Shown here piece by piece: positions 26,908 through 51,989 of a DNA stretch of 64,000 bases. Within the stretch, counting starts at the first letter, position 1; each line of letters opens with the position of its first letter. Source of the stretch: Parcubacteria group bacterium (GTDB lineage: Bacteria > Patescibacteriota > Minisyncoccia > Moranbacterales > GCA-2747515). The notes under the pieces are model-generated. The model saw nothing but the letters and a program-made list of their open reading frames with translations. It searched no databases and had not been told where the DNA came from. The DNA is taken from NCBI GenBank assembly GCA_041660065.1, contig JBAZXC010000001.1, positions 136,535-200,534 of the forward strand, in the 5' to 3' direction. A program made the translations under genes and the position numbers.

Positions 26908-27272
26908 TTGGAAGATCATCAGGTGACAGCTCTACGGAGAGGAAAGTCCGGACACCTCGTGTCTTTATTGACACGTATAAATGGTAGCGGGTAACGCCCG
27001 TCCAGAGTGATCTGCGAGGTGCGAACAGGAACGGTTTTTTCGCGAGAAAAAACCATCCCGCATGTATATGCGGGATGATGCCCTATGGCAACATGGGGAG
27101 TGAAACGGCTAAATCCTTACTCAGGTGCAAGATCGTGTCACGCACCCCAAAATAGTGAAAATGTTTACTATTTTGGGGTGCGTGAAGAATCGCAAAGATG
27201 TTTATGGCAACATAAACACAAGACAGATTGTCATCCCAATGACAGAATCCGGCTTATCGATGATCTTCCAAT
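26908..27272 (+). ncRNA. rnpB: RNase P RNA (bacterial type A)
   Basis: P4 5' strand GGAGAGGAAAGTCCGGACACC. GGTAACGCC (P10/11). GNRA-capped helices. P4 3' strand ACAGAATCCGGCTTATCG. P1 is formed by GGAAGATCAT (26909-26918) pairing with ATGATCTTCC (27260-27269). Two track ORFs (26800..26994, 27085..27279) overlap it and are spurious. Confidence 0.85.
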
Positions 27273-38415: not shown

Positions 38416-41382
38416 ATGGAGCGATACGAACATCAAAAGATCGAGGCAAAATGGCGAGAAGCGTGGACTGCTGCCAATGTGTACAAAACGACAGAGGATC
38501 CGAAAAAAGAGAAATTCTACATTCTCGATATGTTTCCGTATCCGTCAGGTGACGGTTTGCACGTAGGTCATCCCAAGGGATACATTGCAACAGATGTGAT
38601 CTCGCGGTACAAAAAAATGAATAACTTCAATGTATTGCATCCGATGGGGTGGGATGCTTTTGGACTTCCGGCAGAGCAATATGCACTCAAAAATAAAATG
38701 CACCCAAAGATCGCGACAGATCACAATATTGCAACGTTTAAAAAGCAGTTAGAAAAGATCTCGCTGAACTATGATTGGGAACGAGAGATTTCCACAATAG
38801 ATCCATCGTTTTACAAATGGACCCAGTGGACGTTTATCCGCATGTTCAAAAAAGGATTGGTGTTTCAATCCAATGAGCCGATCAACTGGTGTCCGTCATG
38901 CAAGACGGGACTTGCCAATGAGGATCTGGAAAATGGTGCGTGTGAACGATGTGGTACGCCGATCGAAAAGAAAAAGATCCCGCAATGGGTGATCAAGATC
39001 ACGGATTATGCGGACAGACTTCTCGCTGATCTGGATAAACTTGAATGGCAAGATCACATCAAAGAATTGCAACGCAATTGGATCGGACGATCAGAGGGTG
39101 CAAAAATTCAATTCAAAATTACATGTCATCCTGAACTTGTTTCAGGATCTCAAACGAATGAACAGTTATATATTGACGTATTTACCACGCGTCCGGATAC
39201 GCTTTTTGGTGCAACCTATATGGTACTCGCTCCTGAACATCCACTTGTTGATAAATTTCTCTCTTGTCATGCTGAACTTGTTTCAGCATCTCAGGCTGAT
39301 GCAAAAGAGATCCTGAAACAAGTTCAGGATGACAAAAAAAACTGTTATTGTGCTATTTTAAATGATGGCGAAGTTCGACAATATCAAAAACAAACGCTTA
39401 CAAAGACAGAGATCGAGCGCACGACAGAAGGACGAGAAAAAACCGGTGTGAAGCTCGAGGGTGTGATGGCGATCAATCCTGCGAATGGTGCGGAGATCCC
39501 GATCTACATCGCGGATTATGTCTTGGCTGATTATGGCACAGGCGCGATCATGGCGGTGCCGGCACACGATGAAAGGGATTGGGAGTTTGCAAAGAGATAT
39601 GATATTCCGATCGTGCAAGTGGTTGCCGAACTGGATGAAACCAAAGGAAAGTATACGGTACGTGATGATAAGAAAAGTGAAGAGCGACGTAGTATCACTG
39701 TCATTATCAAGCATTGGGCAGAGGATAGATATTATTGTCTCGATTGGCGAAAATCTGATAATGACTGGACGAGTTTTGTGATCGGCGGAGTTGAGGATGG
39801 TGAGACGATCGAAGAAACGGCAGTGCGTGAGGCGCGAGAGGAAACGGGGTATCAAAATATGCGTGTCGTGCGTCGTGTAGGTCAGGTGATCCGCAGTCGA
39901 TTTTTTGCAGCGCACAAAGATATCAATATGAAAGACGCGGTACGTGAGTGTGTCTATCTCGAACTCATAGACGATGCATTTATTGCACCGGATGAAAAGC
40001 ATACAAAAAATCATGATGGCATGTGGATAGAAAAAGAAGACGTTGATGAGTTTCTCAATCTTCCTGCACAAAAAACGTATTGGCGGCAATTTCTCACGGG
40101 TGAAGACGTGTATACTGGTAGTGGCGTGATGATGAATTCCGGAGAGTTTGATGGTATGGATAGTGAAGAAGCTAAAAAGGCAATTACAGAAAAAGTGGGC
40201 GGGGAGATGACGGTGAATTACAAATTGCGCGATTGGGTATTTTCTCGCCAACGATATTGGGGTGAGCCGATCCCGCTCATTCACTGTGCGAAATGTGGTG
40301 TCGTGCCAGTACCGGAAGAAGAACTGCCTTTGACACTTCCTGAAGTTGATAACTATGAACCGACAGGCACGGGCGAGTCACCGCTTGCGGCGATTTCTGA
40401 TTGGGTCAACACAGTTTGTCCCACATGCGGAGGAGAAGCAAAGCGTGAGACCAATACGATGCCACAATGGGCTGGGTCAAGTTGGTATCACCTGCGTTAT
40501 ATCGATCCCAAAAACGATACGGCAATTATTGATAAAGACAAAGATGCATACTGGTCGCCAGTCGATTTTTATGTAGGTGGTGCAGAGCATGCGACGAGAC
40601 ATCTCATCTACGCGCGATTCTGGCACAAGTTCCTCTTTGATATCGGTGCGGTCGCCTATGATGAGCCATACAAAAAATTACAGACAGTCGGACTGATCAT
40701 GGCAGAGGATGGACGCAAGATGTCCAAGCGATGGGGCAATGTGATCAATCCGGATGAAGTGATCGATCGCTTTGGCTCTGATACATTTCGCATGTATGAA
40801 ATGTTCATGGGACCATTTGACGCAACCGTTGCGTGGAGCACGGAGAGTTTGATCGGTCCGCGCAAATTCCTCGAACGTTTGTGGAAATTTTTTGGCAATG
40901 GATTCACCGGCAATTCAGATCCTCAGATCCAGAAAGTATTGCACAAAACGATCAAAAAGGTGGGCGAGGATATCGATGCGATGAAATACAATACAGCGAT
41001 CGCACAGATGATGATCCTCATGAACACAATGGAAAAACACAAAACAATGACAACGGGAGATATGGAGAAATTTCTCCTTATCCTCTCACCGTTCTGTCCG
41101 CACATTACGCAAGAATTATGGTCGCAGTTGGGTCGTGATTCATTCATCTTGCAAGAGCAGTGGCCAATGTATGATGCGGAAAAGATCATCGATGACGAGA
41201 TCACGCTCGCAGTGCAAGTAAACGGCAAAGTGCGCGATCAGATCACCGTGAGTGCGGATATCACAGAAGAGGACGCCAAGGCACAAGCGCTTGCAAGTGA
41301 AAAGATCCAAAAATACACCGCCGGCAAAGACCCAAAAAAGATCATCTTTGTAAAAGGGAAGTTGATTAGTATCGTTGTGTAA
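38416..41382 (+). CDS. leuS: Leucyl-tRNA synthetase with an inserted Nudix hydrolase domain
   Basis: HIGH (HVGHPKGY), CP1 editing domain (TTRPDTLFGATYMVLAPEHP…AVPAHDERDWEFAKRYDIPI), KMSKS (KMSKRWGN), anticodon-binding domain. Between …YDIPIVQVVAE and …NSGEFDGMDSEEAK (E. coli has ~20 aa here) lies a ~160-aa insertion with a perfect Nudix box GGVEDGETIEETAVREAREETGY. Confidence 0.9.
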   Translation: MERYEHQKIEAKWREAWTAANVYKTTEDPKKEKFYILDMFPYPSGDGLHVGHPKGYIATDVISRYKKMNNFNVLHPMGWDAFGLPAEQYALKNKMHPKIATDHNIATFKKQLEKISLNYDWEREISTIDPSFYKWTQWTFIRMFKKGLVFQSNEPINWCPSCKTGLANEDLENGACERCGTPIEKKKIPQWVIKITDYADRLLADLDKLEWQDHIKELQRNWIGRSEGAKIQFKITCHPELVSGSQTNEQLYIDVFTTRPDTLFGATYMVLAPEHPLVDKFLSCHAELVSASQADAKEILKQVQDDKKNCYCAILNDGEVRQYQKQTLTKTEIERTTEGREKTGVKLEGVMAINPANGAEIPIYIADYVLADYGTGAIMAVPAHDERDWEFAKRYDIPIVQVVAELDETKGKYTVRDDKKSEERRSITVIIKHWAEDRYYCLDWRKSDNDWTSFVIGGVEDGETIEETAVREAREETGYQNMRVVRRVGQVIRSRFFAAHKDINMKDAVRECVYLELIDDAFIAPDEKHTKNHDGMWIEKEDVDEFLNLPAQKTYWRQFLTGEDVYTGSGVMMNSGEFDGMDSEEAKKAITEKVGGEMTVNYKLRDWVFSRQRYWGEPIPLIHCAKCGVVPVPEEELPLTLPEVDNYEPTGTGESPLAAISDWVNTVCPTCGGEAKRETNTMPQWAGSSWYHLRYIDPKNDTAIIDKDKDAYWSPVDFYVGGAEHATRHLIYARFWHKFLFDIGAVAYDEPYKKLQTVGLIMAEDGRKMSKRWGNVINPDEVIDRFGSDTFRMYEMFMGPFDATVAWSTESLIGPRKFLERLWKFFGNGFTGNSDPQIQKVLHKTIKKVGEDIDAMKYNTAIAQMMILMNTMEKHKTMTTGDMEKFLLILSPFCPHITQELWSQLGRDSFILQEQWPMYDAEKIIDDEITLAVQVNGKVRDQITVSADITEEDAKAQALASEKIQKYTAGKDPKKIIFVKGKLISIVV

Positions 41383-41389
41383 TTATTTT

Positions 41390-41416
41390 AAGCACCTCAA
41401 AAGAGGTGTTTTAAAA
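41390..41416 (+). terminator. Rho-independent terminator after leuS
   Basis: GCACCTC-aaaa-GAGGTGT followed by TTT. Confidence 0.55.
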
Positions 41417-41607
41417 TTATTTTTCATAACGTATCCGAATATGAGAAGTTTTTGACTTCAAATAGTTTTAAAATTTGTAAGAATTGATACAAAATTTTCG
41501 TCTGATATTTTTTGAAACGATTATCGGTAAATGGGTTGGAATATTTTTCTTTCAAATCTATGCTTTCTGCATAAATTGCCATGTGAAACAAAAAGGAATG
41601 ATAATCA

Positions 41608-42312
41608 TCAATTTTCAACGTGATATTTTTTAACAATCATCCTATTAAAATTTTCCTTGCCGTTTTTGCCGGGAACCAGTTTAATCGTATAATCGTCTAT
41701 AAAAATTTCTCCCCTCATGTTAGGCGCCGATAAAACAAATGACTGATATTCGCCGCTTTCAGCGGCCGGATCTATGCCCTGGGATTGAAGCTCATTAACT
41801 AGTGCAGAGTTAATTTCTCTTCCAATATAATCTTTTGATAGGTTGCCTTCTCTTATACTCAAAATAACTGATTTAATTCTGTTGGATATTACGGAATTCA
41901 TATAGTTAGCACCTTTTTCCCTCGAAGAGCATGCATCTCGAGATGGCCTGATTATCTCAACCCCCAAAGCACCAGCAAGCATATCTCCAATGCCTGAGGT
42001 ATACGGATGCCATAAGTCGCCAGTAACAATGTGAGTTATTTTGTCTTGAATTATTAATTTATTTAATTCGACAAATAATTCATGCAGGTATAAGTTATTT
42101 GAATTGATTATTATTTCTTTGTGCGGCAGGCCAATTAAGCTTAATTGCGTTTTTCTTAATTTCTCATCGGCTTCCGGACCGGCATGCAATTGAGTATCGC
42201 CGATCGGCGATTTGATGCTCACTAAATATTCAATGTCATTCATTTCCCGCGCTCTTATTAAGGAATAAAAGCTATCTTTCCCTCCGCTAAATAATACGAT
42301 TGTTTTTCTCAT
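41608..42312 (-). CDS. PP-loop ATPase of the MJ0570/Dph6 (diphthine-ammonia ligase-like) family
   Basis: MRKTIVLFSGGKDSFYSLIRA… carries the SGGKDS PP-loop, followed by …IVTGDLWHPYTS…. The track extends it to a TTG at 42420; the ATG at 42312 is preferred. Confidence 0.6.
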   Translation of the reverse strand: MRKTIVLFSGGKDSFYSLIRAREMNDIEYLVSIKSPIGDTQLHAGPEADEKLRKTQLSLIGLPHKEIIINSNNLYLHELFVELNKLIIQDKITHIVTGDLWHPYTSGIGDMLAGALGVEIIRPSRDACSSREKGANYMNSVISNRIKSVILSIREGNLSKDYIGREINSALVNELQSQGIDPAAESGEYQSFVLSAPNMRGEIFIDDYTIKLVPGKNGKENFNRMIVKKYHVEN

Positions 42313-42507
42313 AATTTTATCCGTTTTTTCTACGACCAAAGAAGCATAAAAACACCTTTTCCCCTTTATAAAAAAATTAAAAATCAAATTTTCGTCCCTG
42401 TTCAAATCACAAATCTTCAAACTATCGCCAAGATAAAAAATTTATTTCGCCACAACGTATCGCAATGTCCGACGTTTGCCTTAGCGAATGTGGCTTTATT
42501 TTTTTCC

Positions 42508-43530
42508 TTATTTTTCTCCAGTCGGTAAAGATTTTACAAATTTATCAAAATCCGATTCTATTGACTGTGTTTTATTATATTCATCATATTCTTGAAATGC
42601 TTTTTGTTCTGCTTGGGCGCGAGAAATCGTGCCTTTTCCCTCAAGCACTTCATACTTATTAAACTCCAAAAAGTTGTTCACGGACTCCGCCAATTTTTCC
42701 ATCGTAAGAGCAGTGCGATTTTCAATCAGTCTTTCGATGTAATCAAAATAGCCGACGATGCCTCTTTCTAGTTTCTTTATTTTATCCTCAGTAAGATAAT
42801 TTTTGGCAATAATTGTGTCTGATTTCAGAATTCTGCTCTTTGGCGAATTTTTCCAAGTCTTGAGTCCCATGAAAGGTTTTTGCTTGTCTACTGTTTCATA
42901 AACAATCTCAGCTGCGGTTTTGCCGGTAATGGCAAAATGAAATTTATTTTGGATCATTGCATAAAAATTCTTGGCAATTTCTGACGTGGGGCTATAATCC
43001 ATGCTACATTCAGCAAAAATATCCGTAATTTGCTGATAAATTTTTCTCTCACTGGCACGAATAGAACGGACTCTTTCCAAGAGTTCGAGAAAGTAATCTT
43101 TGTCGAAATATCTTCCGTTCTTTAATCTCTCATCATCCATGGTGAAACCTTTGATGATGTATTCCTTAAGCCTTTCCGTTGCCCAAATACGAAACTGAGT
43201 GGCTTGCGATGAGTTTACCCGATAGCCAACCGAAATAATGGCATCAAGATTATAGAACTTTGTTTGGTATTTTTTGCCATCATTGGCAGTGTATTCCAAA
43301 ATGGAATGAACTGAATTTTCCAGCAATTCGCCACTTTCAAAGATATTCTTTAAATGCTTAGCAATAGCTGGTTGTTGCACACCAAACAATCTGGCCATCT
43401 TATCTTGGTTAAGCCAAATATTTTCGTCATGAAAGTAAATTTCCACTTTTACCTTGCCACTTGGCGCTGTGTAAAGCAGAAATTCCGTCAGTTCGTCTTT
43501 GATGGTGATTTGGTGATTATTTTTAGTCAT
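42508..43530 (-). CDS. RhuM-family protein (virulence/mobile-element-associated DNA-binding family)
   Basis: …KVKVEIYFHDENIWLNQDKMARLFGVQQPAIAKHLKNIFESGEL…YNLDAIISVGYRVNSSQATQFRIWATERLKEYIIKGFTMDDERLK… is a strong RhuM signature. Confidence 0.8.
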   Translation of the reverse strand: MTKNNHQITIKDELTEFLLYTAPSGKVKVEIYFHDENIWLNQDKMARLFGVQQPAIAKHLKNIFESGELLENSVHSILEYTANDGKKYQTKFYNLDAIISVGYRVNSSQATQFRIWATERLKEYIIKGFTMDDERLKNGRYFDKDYFLELLERVRSIRASERKIYQQITDIFAECSMDYSPTSEIAKNFYAMIQNKFHFAITGKTAAEIVYETVDKQKPFMGLKTWKNSPKSRILKSDTIIAKNYLTEDKIKKLERGIVGYFDYIERLIENRTALTMEKLAESVNNFLEFNKYEVLEGKGTISRAQAEQKAFQEYDEYNKTQSIESDFDKFVKSLPTGEK

Positions 43531-43565
43531 ATTATCTTAGGCATTAGATCTTCCATAAATTTGTT

Positions 43566-43627
43566 AATATTCGCCTATCTTGATTATATCACCAAACTTG
43601 CTATTTTGTCAGCGCAATTTGCCTGCC
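43566..43627 (-). promoter_or_regulatory. Promoter module for rhuM (minus strand: CTGACA-18-TGATATAAT extended -10); ~60-bp module repeated at 46848-46910
   Basis: The rc of 43581-43627 is AGGCAGGCAAATTGCGCTGACAAAATAGCAAGTTTGGTGATATAATCA. The second copy upstream of ORF 46029..46796 shares TGATTATATCACyAAACTTtGCT.TTG.C..GCGCAATTTGyCTGCCT. Confidence 0.5.
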
Positions 43628-43901
43628 TGCCGGTGGGCAGGGGAGAGTCCCGATATCCGTTATTATGTATCAAGTGAAAAATCGGGGATGACGCATTTGC
43701 ATCACCCCCGTTGTTGTGAGATGAGATCAAGTGTCTCTTTCCCTAGGCCATTCTCACCCGGCCAAAGGTTTTCGCCTTTCTGCTGTTTACCCGCTGGGTC
43801 GGAGTCGTCATTTCTCCTCCGCATGGGGTAGCTTGGTCTGGCCGCTTGTAAGGGAACAGCAGTTATTCCTTGCAACAGGATCAGGGTGCGTTAGGTGAAC
43901 C
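43621..43901 (+). ncRNA. Candidate structured non-coding RNA of unknown class (GC-rich, multiple hairpins, ends in intrinsic terminator)
   Basis: A ~280-nt segment at about 55% GC inside a ~32% GC island. No credible ORF on either strand. Hairpins include CCTGCC/GGCAGG, CCCGAT/ATCGGG, GGGGATG/CATC(a)CCCC, AAAGG/CCTTT, CGGAG/CTCCG, and TTGTAAGGGA/TCCTTGCAA with a GAACAGCAGTTAT loop. It ends with ATCAGG-gtgcgttaggtgaa-CCTGAT plus TTTTTT (43870-43901). I could not match it to RNase P, SRP, tmRNA, 6S or rRNA consensus. Confidence 0.3.
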
Positions 43902-44410
43902 TGATTTTTTATCCTATTGAGTTATTAACAACAAGCAGCATACCATCCTAGCGCCAATTAGACGAAAATTCTATAACTATCCGTATGAATCACCTCCTTT
44001 TTGTTCAGAATTTTTCTAAAAATATTTTTCATAACGTTTAAGAATAAAAGAAGTCACACGCCGACTAAAAACGTAAAGCTTATCCTATCCTCGAAACTTG
44101 TTAAATAGCACTGGCTCTATTATATCACAGAACTAAGGCGAGGGATTTGGAAAAATTCCGAGCCGAGGCCATTTTACTTTTATTCTTTGTTAGGCGAGGG
44201 TTTGATTTTTTTCCTTGATGTAAGAAATATAAAATAAAAAATCAAAAGCGTGGCGTCCCCTTAAGTTTTAAAGAAAAAATTTTGTTATTTTTAGTTTATA
44301 AAAGACATTTTTCTTAATATTGACACCACATAATAAATTTGATTAAATTAAGCATAGCTCTACACACAAGATGTGCATAAACTAGAAGTCCTAGCCGAAA
44401 GGAGACTAAG

Positions 44411-44575
44411 ATGGGAAATCTTGAAGAGTACTATGACAAGGACTACGGCAGACGGTATTATAAGCTAACAGCCGAAGCAGAAAGGAAAAAGCGACAAAAA
44501 GAAAAAAGGGAGGAGGAGGAACTAAAGCAAAAGGGGACGTGGCCTCACGGTATGCCCTGGGGAGGGAAAAAATAA
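44411..44575 (+). CDS. Small basic hypothetical protein (54 aa)
   Basis: TTGACA-17-TTAAAT promoter at 44322. AAAGGAGA RBS 7 nt upstream of the ATG. Translation MGNLEEYYDKDYGRRYYKLTAEAERKKRQKEKREEEELKQKGTWPHGMPWGGKK. An intrinsic terminator follows at 44620-44655. Confidence 0.35.
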   Translation: MGNLEEYYDKDYGRRYYKLTAEAERKKRQKEKREEEELKQKGTWPHGMPWGGKK

Positions 44576-44619
44576 GACCATGCCACGGATGGTATTATCT
44601 CTTGGAGAAACTATCTTAC

Positions 44620-44655
44620 CGCCAATACACCAAAAAGGTTGAGGCGGTTTTTTCT
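44620..44655 (+). terminator. Rho-independent terminator
   Basis: CCGCC-aatacaccaaaaaggttga-GGCGG followed by TTTTTTCTTTG. Confidence 0.5.
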
Positions 44656-44715
44656 TTGTAAAAAATTTCAAAAAATGGCTGTAAAAAAATAAAATTTAAG
44701 GGCAAAGTCATATTT

Positions 44716-44898
44716 TTATTGGTATGTACAAATATAACTAGAGGTTTCTTTTGCTACGATAGCAAATGGCGCACCTAGCTTGACTACAACTTTTTGACCT
44801 GGCAAACACGGTTCATTATTGATTTCCAACGAACCTGTTAAGCATTGTATGGTTTCTTCACGATCAGGCGTAAAAGTATAATTGCCAGGCTCGACCAC
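44716..44898 (-). pseudogene. C-terminal fragment of a cupin (cupin_3/DUF861-like) protein
   Basis: …EPGNYTFTPDREETIQCLTGSLEINNEPCLPGQKVVVKLGAPFAIVAKETSSYICTY matches the C-terminal ~60 aa of small cupins. An in-frame stop lies immediately upstream, so the N-terminal half is missing. Confidence 0.3.
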
Positions 44899-44921
44899 TT
44901 AGCCCTTGCGGATATCGAGTG

Positions 44922-45437
44922 TTATCGGATGTAATTAAAATTTTTATATTCCTTATGAAGTATGTTTTTAGGTCTGTGTTTACCTTCAGATTGATTTAAT
45001 ATTTTTTTAAACTGCACATTGTCTAGAGTAACAGAACCAAAAAGCTGTATTAAAATTGAAGCCAGCGCGAGTACCGAAGAAATTACAATTGCGAAAAGTG
45101 CCATGTTTTTTGCCGTTTTCGATGATCTTAATGCCTCTCTGAATTCACGATAATCAATATAATTGAAGAAAGCATCGTGATTGAGAATAAATTTATCATT
45201 CTCAATATTTAAAAACATTGTATTTCGTACCGGGAGCATTCCACCATGTCCTTCACGATCAGTATGTACGAATTGCCCGCCATTTAACGTATCACTAATT
45301 TGCTTATTGACAATTTTTTTCTCCCAGTCATTTAGGTCAAGATTTTTTTCTAATTCTTCTTGGGTAAAACCGTCTGGATTTTTATATCCAAATTCAGATA
45401 TTCTTATGTATAAATTTTTTTCTTCTGGGTGTTGCAT
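44922..45437 (-). CDS. Hypothetical protein with C-terminal TM helix
   Basis: 171 aa, AT-rich. No family recognised. Confidence 0.4.
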   Translation of the reverse strand: MQHPEEKNLYIRISEFGYKNPDGFTQEELEKNLDLNDWEKKIVNKQISDTLNGGQFVHTDREGHGGMLPVRNTMFLNIENDKFILNHDAFFNYIDYREFREALRSSKTAKNMALFAIVISSVLALASILIQLFGSVTLDNVQFKKILNQSEGKHRPKNILHKEYKNFNYIR

Positions 45438-45570
45438 TTTTTATTAAAAGAAAGATAAAAATTTTAATTATTTCATAACGTATTGGCATCATGCGAGGTG
45501 CAAAGCATTTGGGTGAAGCGTAGCGGAGCCGGATATGCCGTGTTGTGCGATGTAAATTTTTATAATCCAC

Positions 45571-45978
45571 TTATTTAAATGGCTTAAAACCTTGTTTAAT
45601 CAGATTCTGCTGGGGAATAAATAGGGGTTGGGGTGGGTTAGTCCAATCAAACCATGACCATTGTTCACATTTTTTTGGTTCCATAATTTGCAAATCGCCC
45701 GATTCATATTCAGCAGTCATAAATATAGTGATGTAGTGTTTACCTTCAATCGGAAAAATGTCGTTGGTAGCAGCGACAAAGTTTACATTTTTAATGCTCA
45801 AGCCAGTTTCTTCCAAAGTTTCACGTGCCGCACATTCTTCCCATGACTCATTAAATTCAAGGTGACCACCAGGAAAACACCACGAACCGTCACCGTGAGC
45901 ATTTTTACGTTTACCAAAGAGAACTTTGCCATCTTTTAAAACGAGAACTCCAATTCCGACTTTTGGTCTATTTTCCAT
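45571..45978 (-). CDS. Nudix hydrolase (MutT-like)
   Basis: Nudix box GGHLEFNESWEECAARETLEETGL (G-x5-E-x7-REUxEExGU). Confidence 0.8.
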   Translation of the reverse strand: MENRPKVGIGVLVLKDGKVLFGKRKNAHGDGSWCFPGGHLEFNESWEECAARETLEETGLSIKNVNFVAATNDIFPIEGKHYITIFMTAEYESGDLQIMEPKKCEQWSWFDWTNPPQPLFIPQQNLIKQGFKPFK

Positions 45979-46028
45979 ACGTTCAAATATTATTTCCTTA
46001 TTATTAAGTGGGGTAGGACTTTATTAAT

Positions 46029-46796
46029 TTATTTTTCAACAAAATAAACTCCGATGTGTTTGTCGTACAAAAGCTCATCTAAGAGAATTATAATTTTTTC
46101 TGAAATTTTATTTCCTTCTTTAATGTCTTCTTTTGTTAATTCACGACCATGAAATATTTCACCTCTTTTTTGACTGAAATATTGTATCGCTAAATATAAC
46201 TCCTTATCGATTATACCACTTTTGAAGAGGTTTCTGCTTTGATTTAAAACTGATCGATTTCTAAGTTCATCATTTTTTGAAGCCAATGAAAGCTCATTTA
46301 GATTTTCCTGGATTTTTTTATAATTCAGAAAAAATTTATATAAATACCGGCTTAAGTCTGGAATAATTTCTTCATCTTTTTCTGTTTTAACTTTTTTATC
46401 TATTGTAACACCCTTGGTTTTATCGTCTAAATATTTTTTCAACTCCTCAACCTCTTTTTTGTCAAATGGGTGAGTGATAACCTGAACACTTTGTTGCTGG
46501 TTTACAGTAGAAATAATGGTATTTTGTAGTGAAGCAAATTTTTCAATAGTCTCGTGCCTCAAACTTTCAATGTCTTTTTTTATTTTTAAAACATTTAAAA
46601 TACTCAGCTCACTAACTAGTGGCAGCAAGACAACAGATACTATGACAATAAAAAGCATGTTACTAAAAAAGTCTCCTTTGATTGAAAAAATATTGGCTTG
46701 GTAAAGGATAAATACAATAGCTAACAAAATGAATGCTATCAGATTGTACCAGTTCTTTGTATTCATAAAATAAATTAATAAAGCCTCATTTTTCAT
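46029..46796 (-). CDS. Hypothetical membrane protein (2 N-terminal TM helices, coiled-coil middle)
   Basis: 255 aa. Its start codon lies inside the repeated leader element TTTTCATAACGTATCCGAATAT (46790-46811). Confidence 0.45.
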   Translation of the reverse strand: MKNEALLIYFMNTKNWYNLIAFILLAIVFILYQANIFSIKGDFFSNMLFIVIVSVVLLPLVSELSILNVLKIKKDIESLRHETIEKFASLQNTIISTVNQQQSVQVITHPFDKKEVEELKKYLDDKTKGVTIDKKVKTEKDEEIIPDLSRYLYKFFLNYKKIQENLNELSLASKNDELRNRSVLNQSRNLFKSGIIDKELYLAIQYFSQKRGEIFHGRELTKEDIKEGNKISEKIIILLDELLYDKHIGVYFVEK

Positions 46797-46847
46797 AACG
46801 TATCCGAATATCTGAGGTTGCGCCCGTGTTTAATGGCTAAAACTTCA

Positions 46848-46910
46848 AACATTCTCTTATTGTGATTATATCACTAAACTTTGCTTTGCCGAAGCGCAAT
46901 TTGTCTGCCT
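46848..46910 (-). promoter_or_regulatory. Second copy of the ~60-bp promoter module (minus-strand TGATATAAT) driving ORF 46029..46796
   Basis: See the element at 43566-43627. A partial third copy (CTATTATATCACAG, 44116-44129) faces a 24-codon minus-strand ORF that starts in leader-repeat copy B. Confidence 0.45.
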
Positions 46911-47163
46911 ATGACGATTTGTGTGCCACCGCTAAAGCTTTAGCGACACGCGGTCGGCCGTAGTCCTGCCTACCGGTAGGTAGGCAATCTCACTTAGGTG
47001 TTCTGTTTTTCGTGCAATGATCGAGATTGCTTCGTCGCTACACTTCGTTCCGCTCCTCGCAAAGACTATGGTACAGCGCTTGACTAATGGTAATTAATAT
47101 TATAACCTAATGTAAATACTTGAACGAATAGCATCAAACGAAACCAATGGATAGGAGGAAAAT

Positions 47164-47361
47164 ATGTGCGACAGGAAAGATGTATATAAACTTGTTGAGG
47201 CAATTGCGCGCGCTAAAATGCATTTGAGTGTTAAGCAGATGGATCATTCAAAAGAGTGCAATGCAAGTGAAGGAAGAGGTTGTATTTGTGGAGCTGAAAG
47301 AGTGAATGATGCAATAAAAAAAGCAACAGAGGAATTATCTATTGATAGAATGAAATTCTAA
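47164..47361 (+). CDS. Small hypothetical protein (65 aa, Cys-x-Cys motif)
   Basis: GGAGG RBS 7 nt upstream of the ATG. A TTGACT promoter-like sequence lies upstream. The protein contains …GRGCICGAERV…. Confidence 0.35.
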   Translation: MCDRKDVYKLVEAIARAKMHLSVKQMDHSKECNASEGRGCICGAERVNDAIKKATEELSIDRMKF

Positions 47362-47456
47362 TCGTAGTACATTGATTGTGCTAAAACCATCTCGGTCCAC
47401 TGGTAATAAACAGTGGACTTTTTTATATAAGTATCAAAAGGGCTATATATGATGTA

Positions 47457-49770
47457 CATGTTTTCCTTTAATTCGCCGAAGGCGGATTGCTCTTAAAAAG
47501 AATTCAATTTTGTTATTTTGTTTTGGGGAAAGGGCAGAGGAGTTAGGGGTGAATGCCCTTACACCAAAAATCCTTATTATAATTTTTGCATATCACTTAT
47601 TTCATTTTCGATTTTTGTTATTTCAGCCTGAAGTTTTTCGTATAATTTAAAATCAAACTTTTCCTTACTATATAATTTAATTTTACACTTTTCTTTTTGT
47701 ATACAAATATATTGAATGGGATTAAAAGTTTTTTCTTGCCATATTGAAACCGCGTATATTACAAGAAGGGGTATCAACCCCATTATGTATGTTAAGGGCT
47801 CAATTTTATTCCATCCAAATTTTGAAATAATATATACCCAACCTATGAAATAAATAAGTAGCAAAAAGACCGGTGTAAGTTTATACCTTAAGTAAATCTG
47901 TTTGTTGATTTTTTTATCAAATTTATTTTTGGCATCTTCAAGATAAGAAAAATTATTACGCTTTTCTGATAATAATTCCATTTTTATTTTCATGGTTTCG
48001 GTTATAAGTTTTTTTTCTGTATCACCTTGTTTTTTTATTTGATTATCTAAGAGGAGGTTTATACTTTCAACTTCTTTTTTTAGTTGTGTGTTTTCTTCCT
48101 CATGTTTTTTTGCTTTATTTTTAAAATGCTCTTGTTCTTCAATAATTTTGTCTAAATTATTTTCAGCCAATGATTCTAAAATAAAAGATATATTATCATT
48201 CATGATATCTTCAGGTTTTTTTGCCTGCTTTCTTAAGTTGGTAATGGCAAGCGCGACTTGATTATCGTTAAGTTTGCCATTTTTAAATCTTTTTTGTAAC
48301 TCATCAAATTTATTTCCTACCGATTTGTTTAATTGGCTTGAAAGCAGAATCTGAGCTTTTGTTATTACATCAAAAATCTTAGGAAAAGTATTTGTTCCAA
48401 AACCTTTATTCAATTTAAACCAAAATTTGTCAGTTAAAAAGTGTAAAGAGGTAGCCAGGGGGACTTCTCCCGATTTTCTAATGCTTTTATGCCACGCAAC
48501 TTGTAGGGTGGTGTTATTGCCTGATAGAAGTATGTATTTAATATGTTCAAAATTATTATTATATTCATCGGCTCTCTTGATGCTTACGAAGTTAAGTAAC
48601 TCAAGGTTATCTTTAATTTCATTTACGCCAATAGACGCTGCGATTGATTGTTCAATGTTTTCTTCTGCTTTATGAAAAGTTATGTTGTATTTATGATTTT
48701 CTTTTTCATAGTAATTTAGATAATCATCTGCATGAATGTCATTTTTGTTTAATAAGTCAAAAAATATAGTTTTTTTCTCTACAACATCGCTCTTGCTCTT
48801 GCTGCCATTAAGTATGTTATTCATTGCTGGACGCCCTGGGTCAACAACCTCTCCTCCAGATATTATGTATTCTGCTTTTGAAAAATAATTGTGAATATTT
48901 TCTTCAGTCTTTAAAAAATATCTTAGTTTAATAAGTGGTTCCGAAGCTTTCTGGTTTATCTCTTTTACGAATGAATGAAATTCATCAAACAAAGACTTGA
49001 ATAGTTCTCCATTAAAACCAGCAAAATCAAATAAAATTTCTGTATCAAGAAAAATGGTTAATTTCGTATTCCATGAGCCAACGTTACCAATGTTGTCACT
49101 AAACATTATGCCTGTATACAAAACAACCCCTTCTTTTATGCTTTGTAATCTATTGATAAAATCTGGGTTTGGGCTTTTGCTTATTATGAATGCACTGATA
49201 TATTCTGAATATTTTTGATTATTTGATTTATCAAGTAGAAATGAGCAAAAGGAATGCATTATTTCTTTTTTATCAGTCTCGTTTATTTCTTGCTTTTTTT
49301 GAGAAGAAATAAAATCTACTATTTGTTCTATTATTTCATTATTACCTTTAGTAATTTCATCTTTTTTAGGAATAAGGCTCGGGCTTTTAATATTTGATAA
49401 ATTTGCAAAGTATTTGCCTTGGTCTTTGTTTAAAAATTCTTTTAGACGACCTAGCGAAGTTTTTACAACGGCCTCAGGTATATGAAAATTAAAGGTGTCA
49501 TTCAACAAATATGTTATTTCCTGTAAAGTGAAACTGTATTTGGCCTCAGTTATAATTATTTCTTGAAGAAAGCATGAAAGCACACCATATACATCTTTTT
49601 CACTGTCATAAAGTTCTTTAAACAAGGCTAGAGATGCTATTCGACCACTTTCTTCATTAATATTTTCCATAGAAATAAATTAAATAAATTCCTTATTCCC
49701 CTTATTAATTAATAAAAAAACAAAATTGAATTCTTTTTAAGAGCTGGGCGAAGCCCAAAAGGAAAACATG
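47457..49770. mobile_element. 2.3-kb cassette bounded by ~52-bp imperfect terminal inverted repeats, carrying a single 697-aa ORF (no transposase recognised)
   Basis: Left IR 47457-47514 is CATGTTTTCCTTTAATTCGCCGAAGGCGGATTGCTCTTAAAAAGAATTCAATTTTGTT. Right IR 49719-49770 is AACAAAATTGAATTCTTTTTAAGAGCTGGGCGAAGCCCAAAAGGAAAACATG. The outer 26 nt and inner 12 nt are identical. The centres are different small hairpins. Confidence 0.45.
47577..49670 (-). CDS. Hypothetical 697-aa protein: N-terminal globular region, long coiled coil, C-terminal two-helix membrane anchor
   Basis: A 210-nt window at 32% GC preceded the ORF call. The C-terminal region …LTPVFLLLIYFIGWVYIISKFGW…LTYIMGLIPLLVIYAVSIW… forms two TM helices. 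The preceding coiled coil is …NTQLKKEVESINLLLDNQIKKQ…. The N-terminal part contains …NTKLTIFLDTEILFDFAG… (PIN-like? unverified). Confidence 0.55.
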   Translation of the reverse strand: MENINEESGRIASLALFKELYDSEKDVYGVLSCFLQEIIITEAKYSFTLQEITYLLNDTFNFHIPEAVVKTSLGRLKEFLNKDQGKYFANLSNIKSPSLIPKKDEITKGNNEIIEQIVDFISSQKKQEINETDKKEIMHSFCSFLLDKSNNQKYSEYISAFIISKSPNPDFINRLQSIKEGVVLYTGIMFSDNIGNVGSWNTKLTIFLDTEILFDFAGFNGELFKSLFDEFHSFVKEINQKASEPLIKLRYFLKTEENIHNYFSKAEYIISGGEVVDPGRPAMNNILNGSKSKSDVVEKKTIFFDLLNKNDIHADDYLNYYEKENHKYNITFHKAEENIEQSIAASIGVNEIKDNLELLNFVSIKRADEYNNNFEHIKYILLSGNNTTLQVAWHKSIRKSGEVPLATSLHFLTDKFWFKLNKGFGTNTFPKIFDVITKAQILLSSQLNKSVGNKFDELQKRFKNGKLNDNQVALAITNLRKQAKKPEDIMNDNISFILESLAENNLDKIIEEQEHFKNKAKKHEEENTQLKKEVESINLLLDNQIKKQGDTEKKLITETMKIKMELLSEKRNNFSYLEDAKNKFDKKINKQIYLRYKLTPVFLLLIYFIGWVYIISKFGWNKIEPLTYIMGLIPLLVIYAVSIWQEKTFNPIQYICIQKEKCKIKLYSKEKFDFKLYEKLQAEITKIENEISDMQKL

Positions 49771-49949
49771 TATTCCATATAACTGGTTATCATGCAAAAT
49801 TTCAATCGTATAATAGCTCAAATTTGTATGTTATGCGAACATTTGGTATCACTTCTCATATTTGATCTATGGGCAAAATATACCATATTATTTATGAGTC
49901 TCCAAGTTCGTTGCTGGTTGATTTCTTGCACAAACGGTTGATGTATGGT

Positions 49950-50200
49950 ACAGTGTGAAGTACGATGCCGATGAAACTGCTGACACAGTGGAGGCAAAAG
50001 GAAGAAATTTTGTCGCAAAACGATTGAAAGAGTAGAACCTTTCGGGTATGCCCGTTATAGCAAACTGATAAAGTGAGTGATCCGCAATACACTGTGATCA
50101 CTAAAAACGGTGGTACCACGGTTTTTTACCAAAAAAGATCGTCCGTTGGGAGCAAATACGTTTGTTTTCGGCGGACGGTTTTTTGGTCACAAATCTTATC
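49950..50200 (+). promoter_or_regulatory. T-box riboswitch leader of aspS (candidate Asp GAC specifier)
   Basis: AGTAGA box (50030-50035). F-box CCCGTTA (50051-50057). T-box core AAAAACGGTGGTACCACGG (50103-50121). Terminator hairpin CGTCCG…CGGACG plus TTTTTT (50143-50190). Candidate specifier GAC followed by A at 49982-49985. The track's N-terminal extension of aspS (50073-50216) is this leader translated. Confidence 0.5.
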
Positions 50201-50216: not shown

Positions 50217-51989
50217 ATGCTACGAACACATACATGTGGAGAATTAACACATAAAGATATCGGACAAAAAGTTACCTTGTCCGGCTGGGTGCATCGTCGC
50301 CGTGATCATGGCGGTGTGATCTTCATCGATCTGCGTGATCGCTATGGATTGACGCAAATCACGTTCAATCCAGAGCGCGGTGCGGATGTGCATGCGCATG
50401 CGGACAAATTACGCAATGAATGGGTAATTCAAGTGGAGGGAGAAGTCATCGCGCGTCCGGATGATATGATCAACAAAAATCTCCAGACAGGTGAGATCGA
50501 GATCGAGATCAGTGCGCTTGTTGTCCTCAATAAGTCCAAGACGCCACCGTTTGAAATCGGCGATGATAAACTTGAAGCCAATGAAGCGATCCGTCTCAAG
50601 TATCGGTATTTGGACTTGCGTCGCTCGAAATTGCAAAACATGCTTGTGCAAAAAGACAAATTTATCAGCGACATACGCACATTTTTCCATGCGAAAGGTT
50701 TTTGTGAAGTGCAAACGCCGATCCTCGCGAACTCGTCACCGGAAGGTGCGCGAGATTGGCTTATTCCATCTCGCTTATACCATGGGAAGTTTTATGCATT
50801 GCCACAAGCACCGCAACAGTTCAAGCAATTATTGATGGTGGGCGGTGTGGACAAGTATTTCCAGATCGCGCCGTGTTTTCGTGATGAGGATCCGCGGATG
50901 GATCGTCACTTCGGTGAGTTTTATCAGTTGGATTTTGAGATGAGCTTTGTGGAGCAGGCGGATATTTTTGCACTGATGCAAGAATTGTGGATCGATCTGA
51001 CGAAAAAATACAGTACAAAAACACTTGTCTTTACCGATTTCCCGCAGATTCCATGGAAGGATGCGATGAACCGTTATGGGTCCGACAAACCGGATTTGCG
51101 ATTTGATCTCGAAATCGTTGACGTATCGCATCTTGTCAAAGAGTGTTGTTTTGCCGTCTTTGGCAAAGCATGCGAAAGTGGCGGCGTGGTGCATGCGTTG
51201 AAAGTGGATGGTGGCGGTACGGCATTCTCCCGCAAAAATATCGATGATCTCACAGAGTTAGCCAAGACAAAGGGCGCGAAGGGATTAGCATACATTGTTG
51301 TCAAAGAAAACGAATTACAGTCACCGATCGTGAAATTCCTCGGTGAAGATGTGGCACAAGCAATTGTTGTACATGTAAAAGCGCGTCCGGGTGACATCAT
51401 CTTTTTTGGTGCGGACTCATGGCGTGTTGTGTGCGAGAGTTTGGGTGTGGTACGCAACAAATGTGGCGATATGCTCGGACTCAAAGATCCGACAAAAGCG
51501 GCGTGGGCCTGGGTTGTGGATTTCCCGATGTATGATTACTCGGAGATCGAGGATGGACGCATTGATTTTTCTCATAATCCTTTTTCTATGCCACAAGGTG
51601 GAATGGAAGCACTTACTACTCAGGATCCGATGGATATTGTGGCGTATCAATTTGATCTTGTACTCAACGGCTTTGAGGTCTCAAGCGGAGCGATTCGTAA
51701 CCATGATCCTGAGATCATGTATGCGGCATTTGCGATCGCGGGGTATAGCAGAGAAGATGTTGATGCAAAATTCGGACACATGGTGGAAGCATTTAAGTAT
51801 GGTGCGCCGCCACATGGTGGCAGTGCGCCGGGAATCGACCGTGCGTTTATGGTGTTGACTGACTGTGATTCGATCCGTGATATCTATGCGTTTCCCAAAG
51901 ATGGGCAAGGACGCGATGCGATGCTGGATTCACCGTCGTTTGTTGATCCAAAGCAATTGGAAGAACTGGGGATCAAGATCGTGGAATAA
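50217..51989 (+). CDS. aspS: Aspartyl-tRNA synthetase
   Basis: MLRTHTCGELTHKDIGQKVTLSGWVHRRRDHGGVIFIDLRDRYG… (compare E. coli [43 protein letters not shown]). Class II motifs 1-3 (…FRDED…, …GGSAPGIDR…). Confidence 0.9.
   Translation: MLRTHTCGELTHKDIGQKVTLSGWVHRRRDHGGVIFIDLRDRYGLTQITFNPERGADVHAHADKLRNEWVIQVEGEVIARPDDMINKNLQTGEIEIEISALVVLNKSKTPPFEIGDDKLEANEAIRLKYRYLDLRRSKLQNMLVQKDKFISDIRTFFHAKGFCEVQTPILANSSPEGARDWLIPSRLYHGKFYALPQAPQQFKQLLMVGGVDKYFQIAPCFRDEDPRMDRHFGEFYQLDFEMSFVEQADIFALMQELWIDLTKKYSTKTLVFTDFPQIPWKDAMNRYGSDKPDLRFDLEIVDVSHLVKECCFAVFGKACESGGVVHALKVDGGGTAFSRKNIDDLTELAKTKGAKGLAYIVVKENELQSPIVKFLGEDVAQAIVVHVKARPGDIIFFGADSWRVVCESLGVVRNKCGDMLGLKDPTKAAWAWVVDFPMYDYSEIEDGRIDFSHNPFSMPQGGMEALTTQDPMDIVAYQFDLVLNGFEVSSGAIRNHDPEIMYAAFAIAGYSREDVDAKFGHMVEAFKYGAPPHGGSAPGIDRAFMVLTDCDSIRDIYAFPKDGQGRDAMLDSPSFVDPKQLEELGIKIVE

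Follow-up and report, generated by a model that had tools for sequence, protein, structure and literature searches.

A low-GC island with a repeated motif

We analysed a window of 64,000 nucleotides, i.e. 64 kb out of a 469-kb source contig (JBAZXC010000001.1) of a metagenome-assembled Parcubacteria group genome, in which an 8.4-kb island carries several copies of a conserved motif; the present study deals with the nature of this motif and of the gene array in which it occurs. The island (≈41408-49848) is flanked by leuS (38416-41382) on one side and by the T-box leader of aspS on the other. Its GC content amounts to 30-41%, compared to 42-49% in the rest of the window, and its genes are located on the minus strand, while the core genes are otherwise uniformly encoded on the plus strand. 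The right edge is given by the T-box leader (49962-50149, plus strand; 57.5 bits at an Rfam gathering score of 93, E = 9e-11), which lies upstream of aspS (50217-51989, plus strand). No tRNA genes were detected in the window.

The exact 22-mer TTTTCATAACGTATCCGAATAT is present on the plus strand at 41421-41442 and 46790-46811, with no match expected from 100 shuffles. The two copies, reported in an initial annotation of this DNA as identical at all 22 positions, in fact agree over 24 nt (ATTTTTCATAACGTATCCGAATAT; 41419-41442 versus 46788-46811), beyond which their flanks diverge abruptly. Of the 11-mer TTTCATAACGT, the plus strand contains four copies (41422, 44027, 45471 and 46791, designated A, B, C and D) and the minus strand none, compared to an expectation of 0.04, and the string ACGTTAT[GC] is absent from both strands of the window outside these four copies. 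Copies B and C, the two diverged ones, are real homologues, although their positions had been given off by one and are correctly 44026-44046 and 45471-45498; pairwise similarity reaches 79% over 48 nt between A and B and 91% over 32 nt between A and D. All copies lie inside the island, so that within the 64 kb the motif is confined to it, as had been proposed, and is not a common start context of the genome. A degenerate form (TTTTTCATAACGTWTNNGAATA) yielded 10 and 15 matches in two public contig collections (genomes and metagenomes), one per contig, scattered and unrelated, as expected by chance, and relatives were therefore compared via protein anchors. No Rfam family matched at the sites described below or elsewhere in the island, neither at gathering nor at E-value thresholds.

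The ATG of the motif is incidental

The motif had been described as a conserved 5' leader that supplies the start codon of minus-strand open reading frames (ORFs). The small ORFs named in support of this view (14 codons, 24 codons and an ATG-AAA-TAA dead end) can all be read in the sequence. However, translation of the 255-aa membrane protein probably does not begin at the ATG of 46796: the NCBI record and all seven homologues start at M11 of this ORF (MN[TRK]KNWYNL), and in the closest relative (L037/L038, 85% nucleotide identity), whose nucleotide homology begins only at window position 46791, the frame upstream of M11 is interrupted by a TGA in place of an AAA of the window. Homologous sites of relatives carry ATC, ATA, AGG or GTA at the position of the ATG (in the forms GTTATCT, GTTATAC, GTTAGGC and GTTGTAC of the R' box introduced below), and a conserved start-codon module is not compatible with this variation. 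A position 60-80 nt downstream of the promoter module TGATATAAT holds for D (≈70 nt) and roughly for B (≈90 nt), but not for A and C. The ATG in the motif is incidental, and for annotation purposes the short ORFs and the N-terminal extension that begin at it are artefacts. Look-up of the exact membrane protein retrieved a 1-kb Logan contig identical to the window as the sole match; the same look-up with the leucyl-tRNA synthetase (LeuRS) gave no match.

Frames that end in …YSDTL* overlap the motif ATG via ATGA at two of the copies, namely a 70-aa ORF at A (41424-41636, minus strand) and a 19-codon ORF at D (MFEVLAIKHGRNLRYSDTL; 46797-46856, minus strand). Translational coupling of such an upstream ORF was considered and dropped, as the relatives have neither the ATG nor the frame. 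We regard these frames as a probable side effect of the sequence that the sites have in common rather than as a leader peptide.

The conserved block belongs to hairpin sites at the 3' end of genes

Related loci gave the motif its context. In L037, an element of ≈100 nt located 3' of the membrane-protein gene is homologous to copy C of the window (73% over 92 nt), and the 3' end of the same element (CTTCAGATATTCAGAAACGTTATC) is homologous to copies D and A. L027 and L039 have this element in the same place, 3' of a homologous membrane-protein gene. The conserved block corresponds to the 3' arm, the spacer and the R' box of a hairpin site of ≈80-200 nt that follows the preceding cassette, and judged from these alignments the motif is best read as the part of attC-like sites that runs from the L' arm through spacer and R' into the beginning of the next cassette (ATATTCGG-ATAC-G|TTATGAAAAAT).

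On the coding strand, such a site begins with a TTACATC box and an R'' box of the form RYYYAAC (GCCTAAC, ACTTAAC), followed by 1-2 nt, an arm of 10-12 bp and a loop of 32-160 nt; the return side consists of AAC(A/T)TC with the complementary arm, (a)aac and R' (G|TTA…). In most sites, R'' and R' conform to the core consensus of integrons (GCCTAAC, GTTAGGC, GTTAAAC). The arms of the sites in L037, L027, L039 and L041 are complementary despite differing sequence (CTGAATATCTG/CAGATATTCAG, CTCATATCTG/CAGATATGAG, AGTATGTGAG/CTCATATACT, GCGTGTATGAG/CTCATACACGC and GCGCGTAGGCG/CGCCTACGCGC). In an alignment of ten sites (A4), trimmed of loops and spacers and fitted in register by hand, 90% of the cells are paired and compensatory changes are found in nine of the twelve pairs; the covariation score was 0.676, compared to 0.168 after shuffling (reached in none of 500 trials) and at most 0.126 with slid partners. 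Even a single perfect complement of 11-12 bp at fixed geometry is very unlikely to arise by chance. In integrons, the choice of strand is directed by extrahelical bases and by an unpaired central spacer of the folded bottom strand; in the present stems, wobble pairs show no clear preference for one strand. The attC boxes together with the covarying stem of 10-12 bp were found in 13 sites of the relatives and in site B of the window.

A purpose-written geometry scan gave 12 distinct matches in the related loci, whereas 143 kb of unrelated loci yielded no match and shuffled windows 0.2 each. A loose version of it was discarded since it produced ≈7 to ≈240 chance matches per 64 kb depending on the settings. 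The curated attC covariance model of IntegronFinder/HattCI does not form part of Rfam.

The loops often contain CACCCAAAT, and most of the 13 share C(A/C)CCCA(A/T)AT. Six of 13 site loops hold an extended -10-like element (TGnTAnAAT) that points toward the next cassette; these are window 44029-44195, L037 962-1112, L041 2864-3006, L049 1560-1679, L050 562-702 and L039 2592-2701. Since the shared motif and the -10-like elements are located there, the variable part of the sites appears to be under some constraint.

Related arrays adjoin a tyrosine recombinase and an attI-like region

Our comparison comprises about a dozen related loci. In L041, a distant homologue of the membrane protein adjoins a tyrosine recombinase of 271 aa, and two genes divergent from the recombinase are each closed by a site ending in aaac-GTTAGGC. 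The same arrangement, a recombinase of 270 aa divergent from co-oriented cassettes, recurs in L041, L042-L044, L045-L054 and L055. About 130 nt upstream of the recombinase gene are conserved and end sharply at …CGTATAAAAACGA-G|TTA (…CGA-G|TTA), with unrelated sequence beyond; at least six different first cassettes follow this junction. The related loci hence have an attI-like site, situated beside the recombinase and with its junction at G|TT.

More than 7500 database proteins belong to the recombinase family at E ≤ 1e-20, many of them 75-87% identical across lineages of the Candidate Phyla Radiation (CPR), and one identical recombinase protein was found in at least five neighbourhoods. The score against XerA is 216.6 bits (cutoff 220), and solved relatives include 4a8e and 5hxy. 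The closest solved relative is VchIntIA; the alignment to it falls into two pieces, with 19 aa where residues 184-245 (62 aa) of IntI4 stand. In three loci (L042 11081-11169, tga; L045 2062-2152, gga; L055 10961-11049, gct), the recombinase gene is closely followed by a tRNA-Ser gene in the opposite orientation, and the recombinase platform may target, or be anchored at, tRNA-Ser genes. The cargo near the recombinase or near membrane-protein homologues (L055 503-9729 and L048 98-5138, both minus strand; L039, L040 and L034) consists predominantly of defence genes: restriction-modification of types I, II and III, an OLD-like AAA_15/TOPRIM ATPase, SLFN/AlbA and PLD proteins, and Vsr with HpaII.

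Integron cassettes leave the array as circles, which open at G|TT. A corresponding signature is present in the related loci, where the first six nucleotides of a cassette are the perfect reverse complement of its own R'' in ten of 13 cassettes; examples of start/R'' pairs are TTATGT/ACATAA, TTATAC/GTATAA, TTATCG/CGATAA, TTAGGC/GCCTAA, TTGTAC/GTACAA, TTATAT/ATATAA, TTAAAC/GTTTAA and TTAGAC/GTCTAA. In L041 the complementarity extends over ≈20 nt. Excision as circles would explain this complementarity as well as the long inverted repeats that frame the genes, and the same pattern accounts for the inverted repeats of 19 nt and 77 nt in the window. Two further observations concern the closest relative. 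In L037, identity within the repeat that flanks the cassette rises to 100% precisely behind AACG|TTATC. L038 is a metagenome contig of 1140 nt (1-1140) whose ends overlap by 52 nt; its period of 1088 nt is that of one membrane-protein cassette from G|TT to G|TT (compare L037 1087-2267), and the contig represents either a tandem duplicate or an assembled excised circle. The same gene with its site was also found in unrelated neighbourhoods.

Composition of the array in the window

All features of this section are on the minus strand, unless indicated otherwise, and are described from the aspS side. The array begins with an attI-like remnant (49783-49848) that is homologous to the region between recombinase and first cassette of the relatives and ends in G|TTATAT (G at 49783). 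When aligned locally to L041, L042, L045 and L049, it gave z = 4.9-7.7 (300 shuffles; MAFFT alignment A5). No recombinase gene is located beside it.

Cassette 1 starts with TTATATGGAATACATGTTTTCC... (49758-49782), one arm of a long inverted repeat around the gene for a 697-aa protein (47577-49670), a coiled-coil protein with C-terminal transmembrane segments for which only weak Pfam and PADLOC matches and no confident family were obtained. The inverted repeat has a length of 77 nt and matches at 75% over 80 nt; the first six nucleotides, TTATAT, find their complement, ATATA(A), at the 3' arm (AAAGGAAAACATGTACATCATATA, 47446-47469). This arm contains a TACATC box and a truncated R'', and the remaining site is missing. 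A 65-aa gene on the plus strand and a GC-rich stretch lie between cassette 1 and site D. The latter stretch is a hairpin repeat (GCAATCTC…GAGATTGCTTCGTCGCT…; 46984-47047, plus strand) upstream of the membrane-protein promoter, with a 73% copy in the core genome (21455-21518, minus strand); it is a separate, REP-like family outside the attC-like sites.

Site D (46788-46835), which holds one copy of the 22-mer, is an attC-like site with an internal deletion (ATTAAAC-ACGG / GCGCAACCTCAGATATTCGG-ATAC-G|TTATGAAAAAT) and agrees with the 3' half of the L037 site (GACGCAACTTCAGATATTCAGAAACGTTAT) at 26 of 30 nt. The membrane-protein cassette that follows has a 5' arm (GGCTTTATTAATTTATTTT, 46767-46785), kept in L037 and L039, which forms the 19-nt inverted repeat with 46017-46035. 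Its gene (46029-46766; the ORF extends to 46796) encodes 245 aa from M11. The 3' arm with a truncated R'' (AAAATAAATTAATAAAGTCCTACCCCACTTAA, 46004-46035) is cut after …CACTTAA, where L037 continues as …AAAGCCTTACATCACTTAAC-A-CTGAATATCTGG. The relatives have their hairpin at this place, and the window has the gene of a NUDIX hydrolase (135 aa, 45571-45978; PF00293 8e-23; PADLOC candidate PDC-S07 1e-12). A diverged fifth copy of the motif, at the start of the NUDIX gene (AATATTTGAACGTATGGAAAAT, 45970-45991), was read by eye and is the weakest copy, to be regarded as a candidate.

Site C (45461-45556) is a full-length but decayed attC-like site (TTTACATC-GCACAAC-a-CGGCATATCCGG … CACCCAAAT … CATGATGCC-aatac-G|TTATGAAATAAT), of whose stem ≈6 of 12 pairs are left and which folds poorly (alignments A1 and A4). 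Next comes a gene for 171 aa without assigned function (44922-45437), over whose stop codon a 5' half-site extends (TTACATC-CGATAAC-ac-TCGATATCCG, 44909-44934) that is cut by a fragment of a PpnP gene (44716-44898). A 54-aa gene on the plus strand lies between this fragment and site B.

Site B (44029-44195) is the sole intact attC-like site of the window. It reads GCCTAAC-a-AAGAATAAAAG, a loop of 126 nt with TGTGATATAAT, and CTTTTATTCTT-aaac-G|TTATGA, and its spacers (a and aaac) are those of the L037, L041, L042 and L049 sites. It is the only match of the geometry scan in the window (mean of the shuffles, 0.2). The cassette behind it (43683-44028) contains no ORF apart from the one of 24 codons; it has ≈300 nt of GC-rich sequence, a strong intrinsic terminator (43710-43683), a fold z of -3.3 and no Rfam match, and may encode a small RNA driven by TGTGATATAAT in the loop of site B. 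The 5' half-site after it (GATACATAATAAC-gg-ATATCGGGAC, 43647-43671) has the R'' TAATAAC, in agreement at six of seven positions with the TCATAAC expected from the cassette start TTATGA. Cassette start and R'' match at five of six positions for the 697-aa cassette and less well in the remaining cassettes.

The distal part of the array comprises a RhuM-family gene (42508-43530; PF13310 8e-101; PADLOC candidate PDC-S05 2e-143) with a promoter module TGnTATAAT (43583-43612), a compact degenerate junction to the next gene (42439-42500; AATAAAGCC-ACATTCGCTAAG … ACATTGCGATACGTTGTGGCGAAATAAATT) that represents a candidate sixth, diverged copy of the motif, likewise read by eye, and a gene for a Dph6-like ATP pyrophosphatase (41608-42420; PF01902 4e-21; TIGR03679 below its cutoff). 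The array ends with site A (41408-41451; AAACTTCTCATATTCGG-ATAC-G|TTATGAAAAATAATTTTAAAAC), a 3' half-site that holds the other copy of the 22-mer and abuts the leuS terminator hairpin; its 3' half closely resembles the L039 site (AAACTTCTCATATACTAAACGTTAT). A search for 5' arms of A and D (AACNCCGAATATSWG) gave matches at chance level only, and both are therefore considered as half-sites.

The window holds a fossil array, similar to a cluster of attC sites lacking an integron-integrase (CALIN), since no tyrosine recombinase is encoded in the 64 kb: proximal site and cassette order have been kept, and the recombinase and most of the hairpins have apparently been lost.

Three other features of the window were noted in passing. 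LeuRS (38416-41382, plus strand) contains at residues 446-545 a NUDIX domain (PF00293, 47 bits at a cutoff of 21) in or next to the editing domain, which looks unusual. Within leuS (39130-39328, plus strand) there is a perfect 13-nt inverted repeat (GTTTCAGGATCTC / GAGATCCTGAAAC) with the flanks CCTGAAC…GTTCAGG; it is in frame, translates to PELVSGS…/AELVSAS…LKQVQDD and looks like a palindromic element that is tolerated in coding sequence. RNase P RNA of bacterial class A is located at 26911-27272 (plus strand, 118 bits).

Discussion

In our view the island is quite probably a decayed, recombinase-less cassette array of an integron-like system that is widespread in Patescibacteria (CPR), and the copies of the motif are remnants of its attC-type sites. 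Direct support comes from the architecture and covariation of the sites, the attI-like junctions, the permutation signature and the association with a recombinase in the relatives, and from the attI-like and site remnants in the window. In this explanation, each cassette ends in an attC-like site; by analogy with integrons, the tyrosine recombinase would cut at G|TT, presumably acting on folded single strands, and the cassette would leave as a circle and insert at the attI site beside the recombinase gene. The array of the window presumably lost its recombinase by deletion. Of the proposal in the initial annotation that the island resembles a cassette array with integron-like boundaries, the boundary function of the motif has stood, while the constant 5' leader that provides start codon and first codons has not.

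Several observations weigh against this interpretation. As to the window, tblastn detected no tyrosine recombinase in the 64 kb, only one site is intact, R' (GTTATGA) fits GTTRRRY at five of seven positions, and R'' and cassette start are imperfectly complementary (three to five of six). A single match of the geometry scan has a chance of ≈20% per shuffled window, and the case for the window hence rests on homology to the relatives. As to the sites, loops and spacers of A4 were trimmed and its register was fitted to the structure, a procedure that favours structure, and a covariance model built from loop-trimmed pseudo-sequences (R1) did not recover its training sites in real DNA (best E = 0.33, stems skipped). 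The stems are perfect and show no extrahelical (bulged) bases. As to the recombinase, the alignment with VchIntIA indicates that it lacks the IntI-specific additional domain, and its best NCBIfam match, TIGR02249 'integron integrase', scores 228 bits and is below the cutoff of 265; the tRNA-Ser genes next to it would equally fit a tRNA-targeting island integrase. On account of the missing domain, the score below the cutoff and the absence of extrahelical bases, an integron-like chemistry of recombinase and sites is unproven.

Four other explanations were weighed. That the sites are repetitive extragenic palindromic (REP) or miniature inverted-repeat transposable elements (MITE), or terminator-like intergenic hairpins, which spread or are kept for transcript 3' ends and whose similarity merely aids homologous recombination without any site-specific recombination, is suggested by their position 3' of genes, by loops with the conserved CACCCAAAT and GC-rich segments typical of REP-like repeats, and by the other GC-rich repeat of the island that recurs in the core genome (46984-47047 and 21455-21518). 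We nevertheless hold it improbable, because the stems are not followed by a T-run (terminators were detected elsewhere), the same gene and site occur in unrelated neighbourhoods, and neither the reverse complementarity between cassette start and own R'' in ten of 13 cassettes nor the sharp end of the recombinase-proximal region at G|TTA before differing first cassettes would be expected. Insertion independent of genes, as for REP or MITE elements, is not what we found: the units are always at the 3' end of a cassette, and R'' is complementary to the cassette's own first bases across hundreds to thousands of nucleotides. Another reading, that A and D with their perfect 24-nt direct repeats and abruptly diverging flanks are attL and attR of one 5.4-kb element, or that the island is a tRNA-type genomic island with an integrase unrelated to the hairpins, would be in line with the tRNA-Ser genes adjoining the recombinase of the relatives. 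It is contradicted by four to six more copies between and outside A and D, by the continuation of the low-GC island for 3 kb past site D, by the lack of an integrase and of a tRNA in the window, and by the membership of the repeat in a larger site family with an internal hairpin. The single 5.4-kb element bounded by A and D was rejected on account of the further copies and the wider island, and this explanation as a whole appears very improbable to us.

We assign a comparably low probability to modules of the Xer/dif type, like pdif of Acinetobacter plasmids, in which an enzyme related to XerA or XerC/D uses short dif-like sites in duplex form, with TTATGAAAAAT as a half-site similar to a XerD arm. 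The XerA score of the recombinase is near its IntI score, the IntI domain is missing, and TTATGAAAAAT is presumably comparable to the XerD arm TTATGTTAAAT. However, the sites are not 28-bp units of two arms and a 6-bp spacer, the candidate left arm being 9-10 nt away, and their conserved features are a covarying hairpin of 12 bp, a long loop and AAC…GTT boxes. Moreover, pdif modules are bounded by inverted pairs of sites; the sites found here are hairpins of 80-200 nt in direct, uniform orientation, to which no 11-6-11 unit can be fitted. Least credible, and in our opinion extremely unlikely, is an origin of the copies as decayed duplicates of the 5' end of one gene or as a constant 5' module that supplies start codons to variable genes. 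ATG-AAA-AAT is indeed common to A, B and D, site D is ≈70 nt downstream of a TGnTATAAT element, and the NUDIX gene seemingly starts at a diverged copy of the motif. These points do not outweigh the presence of ATC, ATA or AGG instead of ATG at homologous sites, the location of the conserved membrane-protein start 30 nt downstream, the in-frame stop in the closest relative, or the absence of a promoter at A and C. The conserved block, in addition, continues upstream into the covarying hairpin arm in the 3' flank of the preceding gene. The decayed duplicates, offered earlier as a fallback, are likewise unsupported.

With an array of integron-like cassettes as the preferred explanation, we tentatively propose, as a possibility for which we claim somewhat less than even confidence, that CPR bacteria carry a widespread and undescribed integron-like class. 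Its components would be a highly conserved 270-aa recombinase similar to IntI and XerA but without the IntI domain, an attI-like site and perfect-stem attC-like sites with a loop motif and often a built-in promoter; the elements would shuffle cassettes mostly of defence type, and the window would hold one of their fossil arrays. Neither integrons nor attC arrays of CPR, Patescibacteria or Parcubacteria came up in literature searches of incomplete coverage, and this supports novelty only weakly. Given the great abundance of the recombinase family and the cargo of its arrays (restriction-modification genes, OLD-like ATPase, RhuM and NUDIX), the system may be a main route by which CPR bacteria exchange defence genes. 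The findings also bear on the question of how integrons arose from Xer-type recombinases. The extra domain of integron integrases reads the extrahelical bases of folded attC DNA. Here, the cassette logic of integrons is met in combination with a recombinase of Xer size without the extra domain, with sites without bulges and in a host phylum with tiny genomes.

Comparison with known systems

The related loci share with chromosomal (sedentary) integrons co-oriented cassettes of one or few genes that are divergent from a tyrosine recombinase, a proximal junction at G|TT, RYYYAAC … GTTRRRY boxes, arms that are conserved in structure and variable in sequence, cassette starts complementary to their own R'', and accessory and defence cargo. 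They differ by the recombinase, which at 270 aa is devoid of the IntI-specific domain and does not reach the TIGR02249 cutoff, and by the host phylum, Patescibacteria, for which our literature searches gave no integron report. In contrast to canonical attC sites, theirs have perfect stems of 10-12 bp, asymmetric spacers (1 nt versus 3-5 nt), a loop motif, frequently a -10-like element and often an R' of the form GTTAT…. An additional domain around patch III is treated as defining an integron integrase (PMC9668308) and is attributed there to Messier & Roy 2001 (as cited in PMC9668308). An integrase with this domain is encoded neither in the window nor in the related loci, whose recombinase lacks it. 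The associated recombinase and the details of the sites depart from the definition of an integron, and the system is apparently a variant of it.

According to the definition of IntegronFinder used in PMC9668308, a CALIN is a cluster of attC sites without an integron-integrase. The window resembles it by several co-oriented attC-like sites or remnants and by the absence of a recombinase within 64 kb; with site B intact, site C full-length though decayed and at least five half-sites or compact remnants, it would reach the two attC sites that a CALIN has at the least if site C or the remnants passed the IntegronFinder attC model. It departs from a CALIN by having a single intact site among halves and decayed ones, and by its attI-like remnant, a hint that the element was once complete. 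Archaeal integrons (Ghaly et al. 2022) were described from uncultured lineages of metagenome-assembled genomes (MAGs), including the ultra-small DPANN, and are mostly CALINs; their IntIs carry the additional domain, and in folding their attCs resemble those of bacteria (PMC9668308). The present arrays are similar to them in being integron-type arrays of uncultured lineages known mainly from MAGs, and dissimilar in that the recombinase of Patescibacteria is without the additional domain.

The comparison with Xer/dif systems (XerC/D, archaeal XerA) has two sides as well. The recombinase resembles XerA about as closely as it does IntI, with the same size and domain layout. Unlike Xer/dif, however, the system has long hairpin sites instead of a 28-bp duplex, many sites per locus that bound cargo, and an identical recombinase in at least five neighbourhoods. 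Such a system could represent a living intermediate between Xer recombination and classical integrons.

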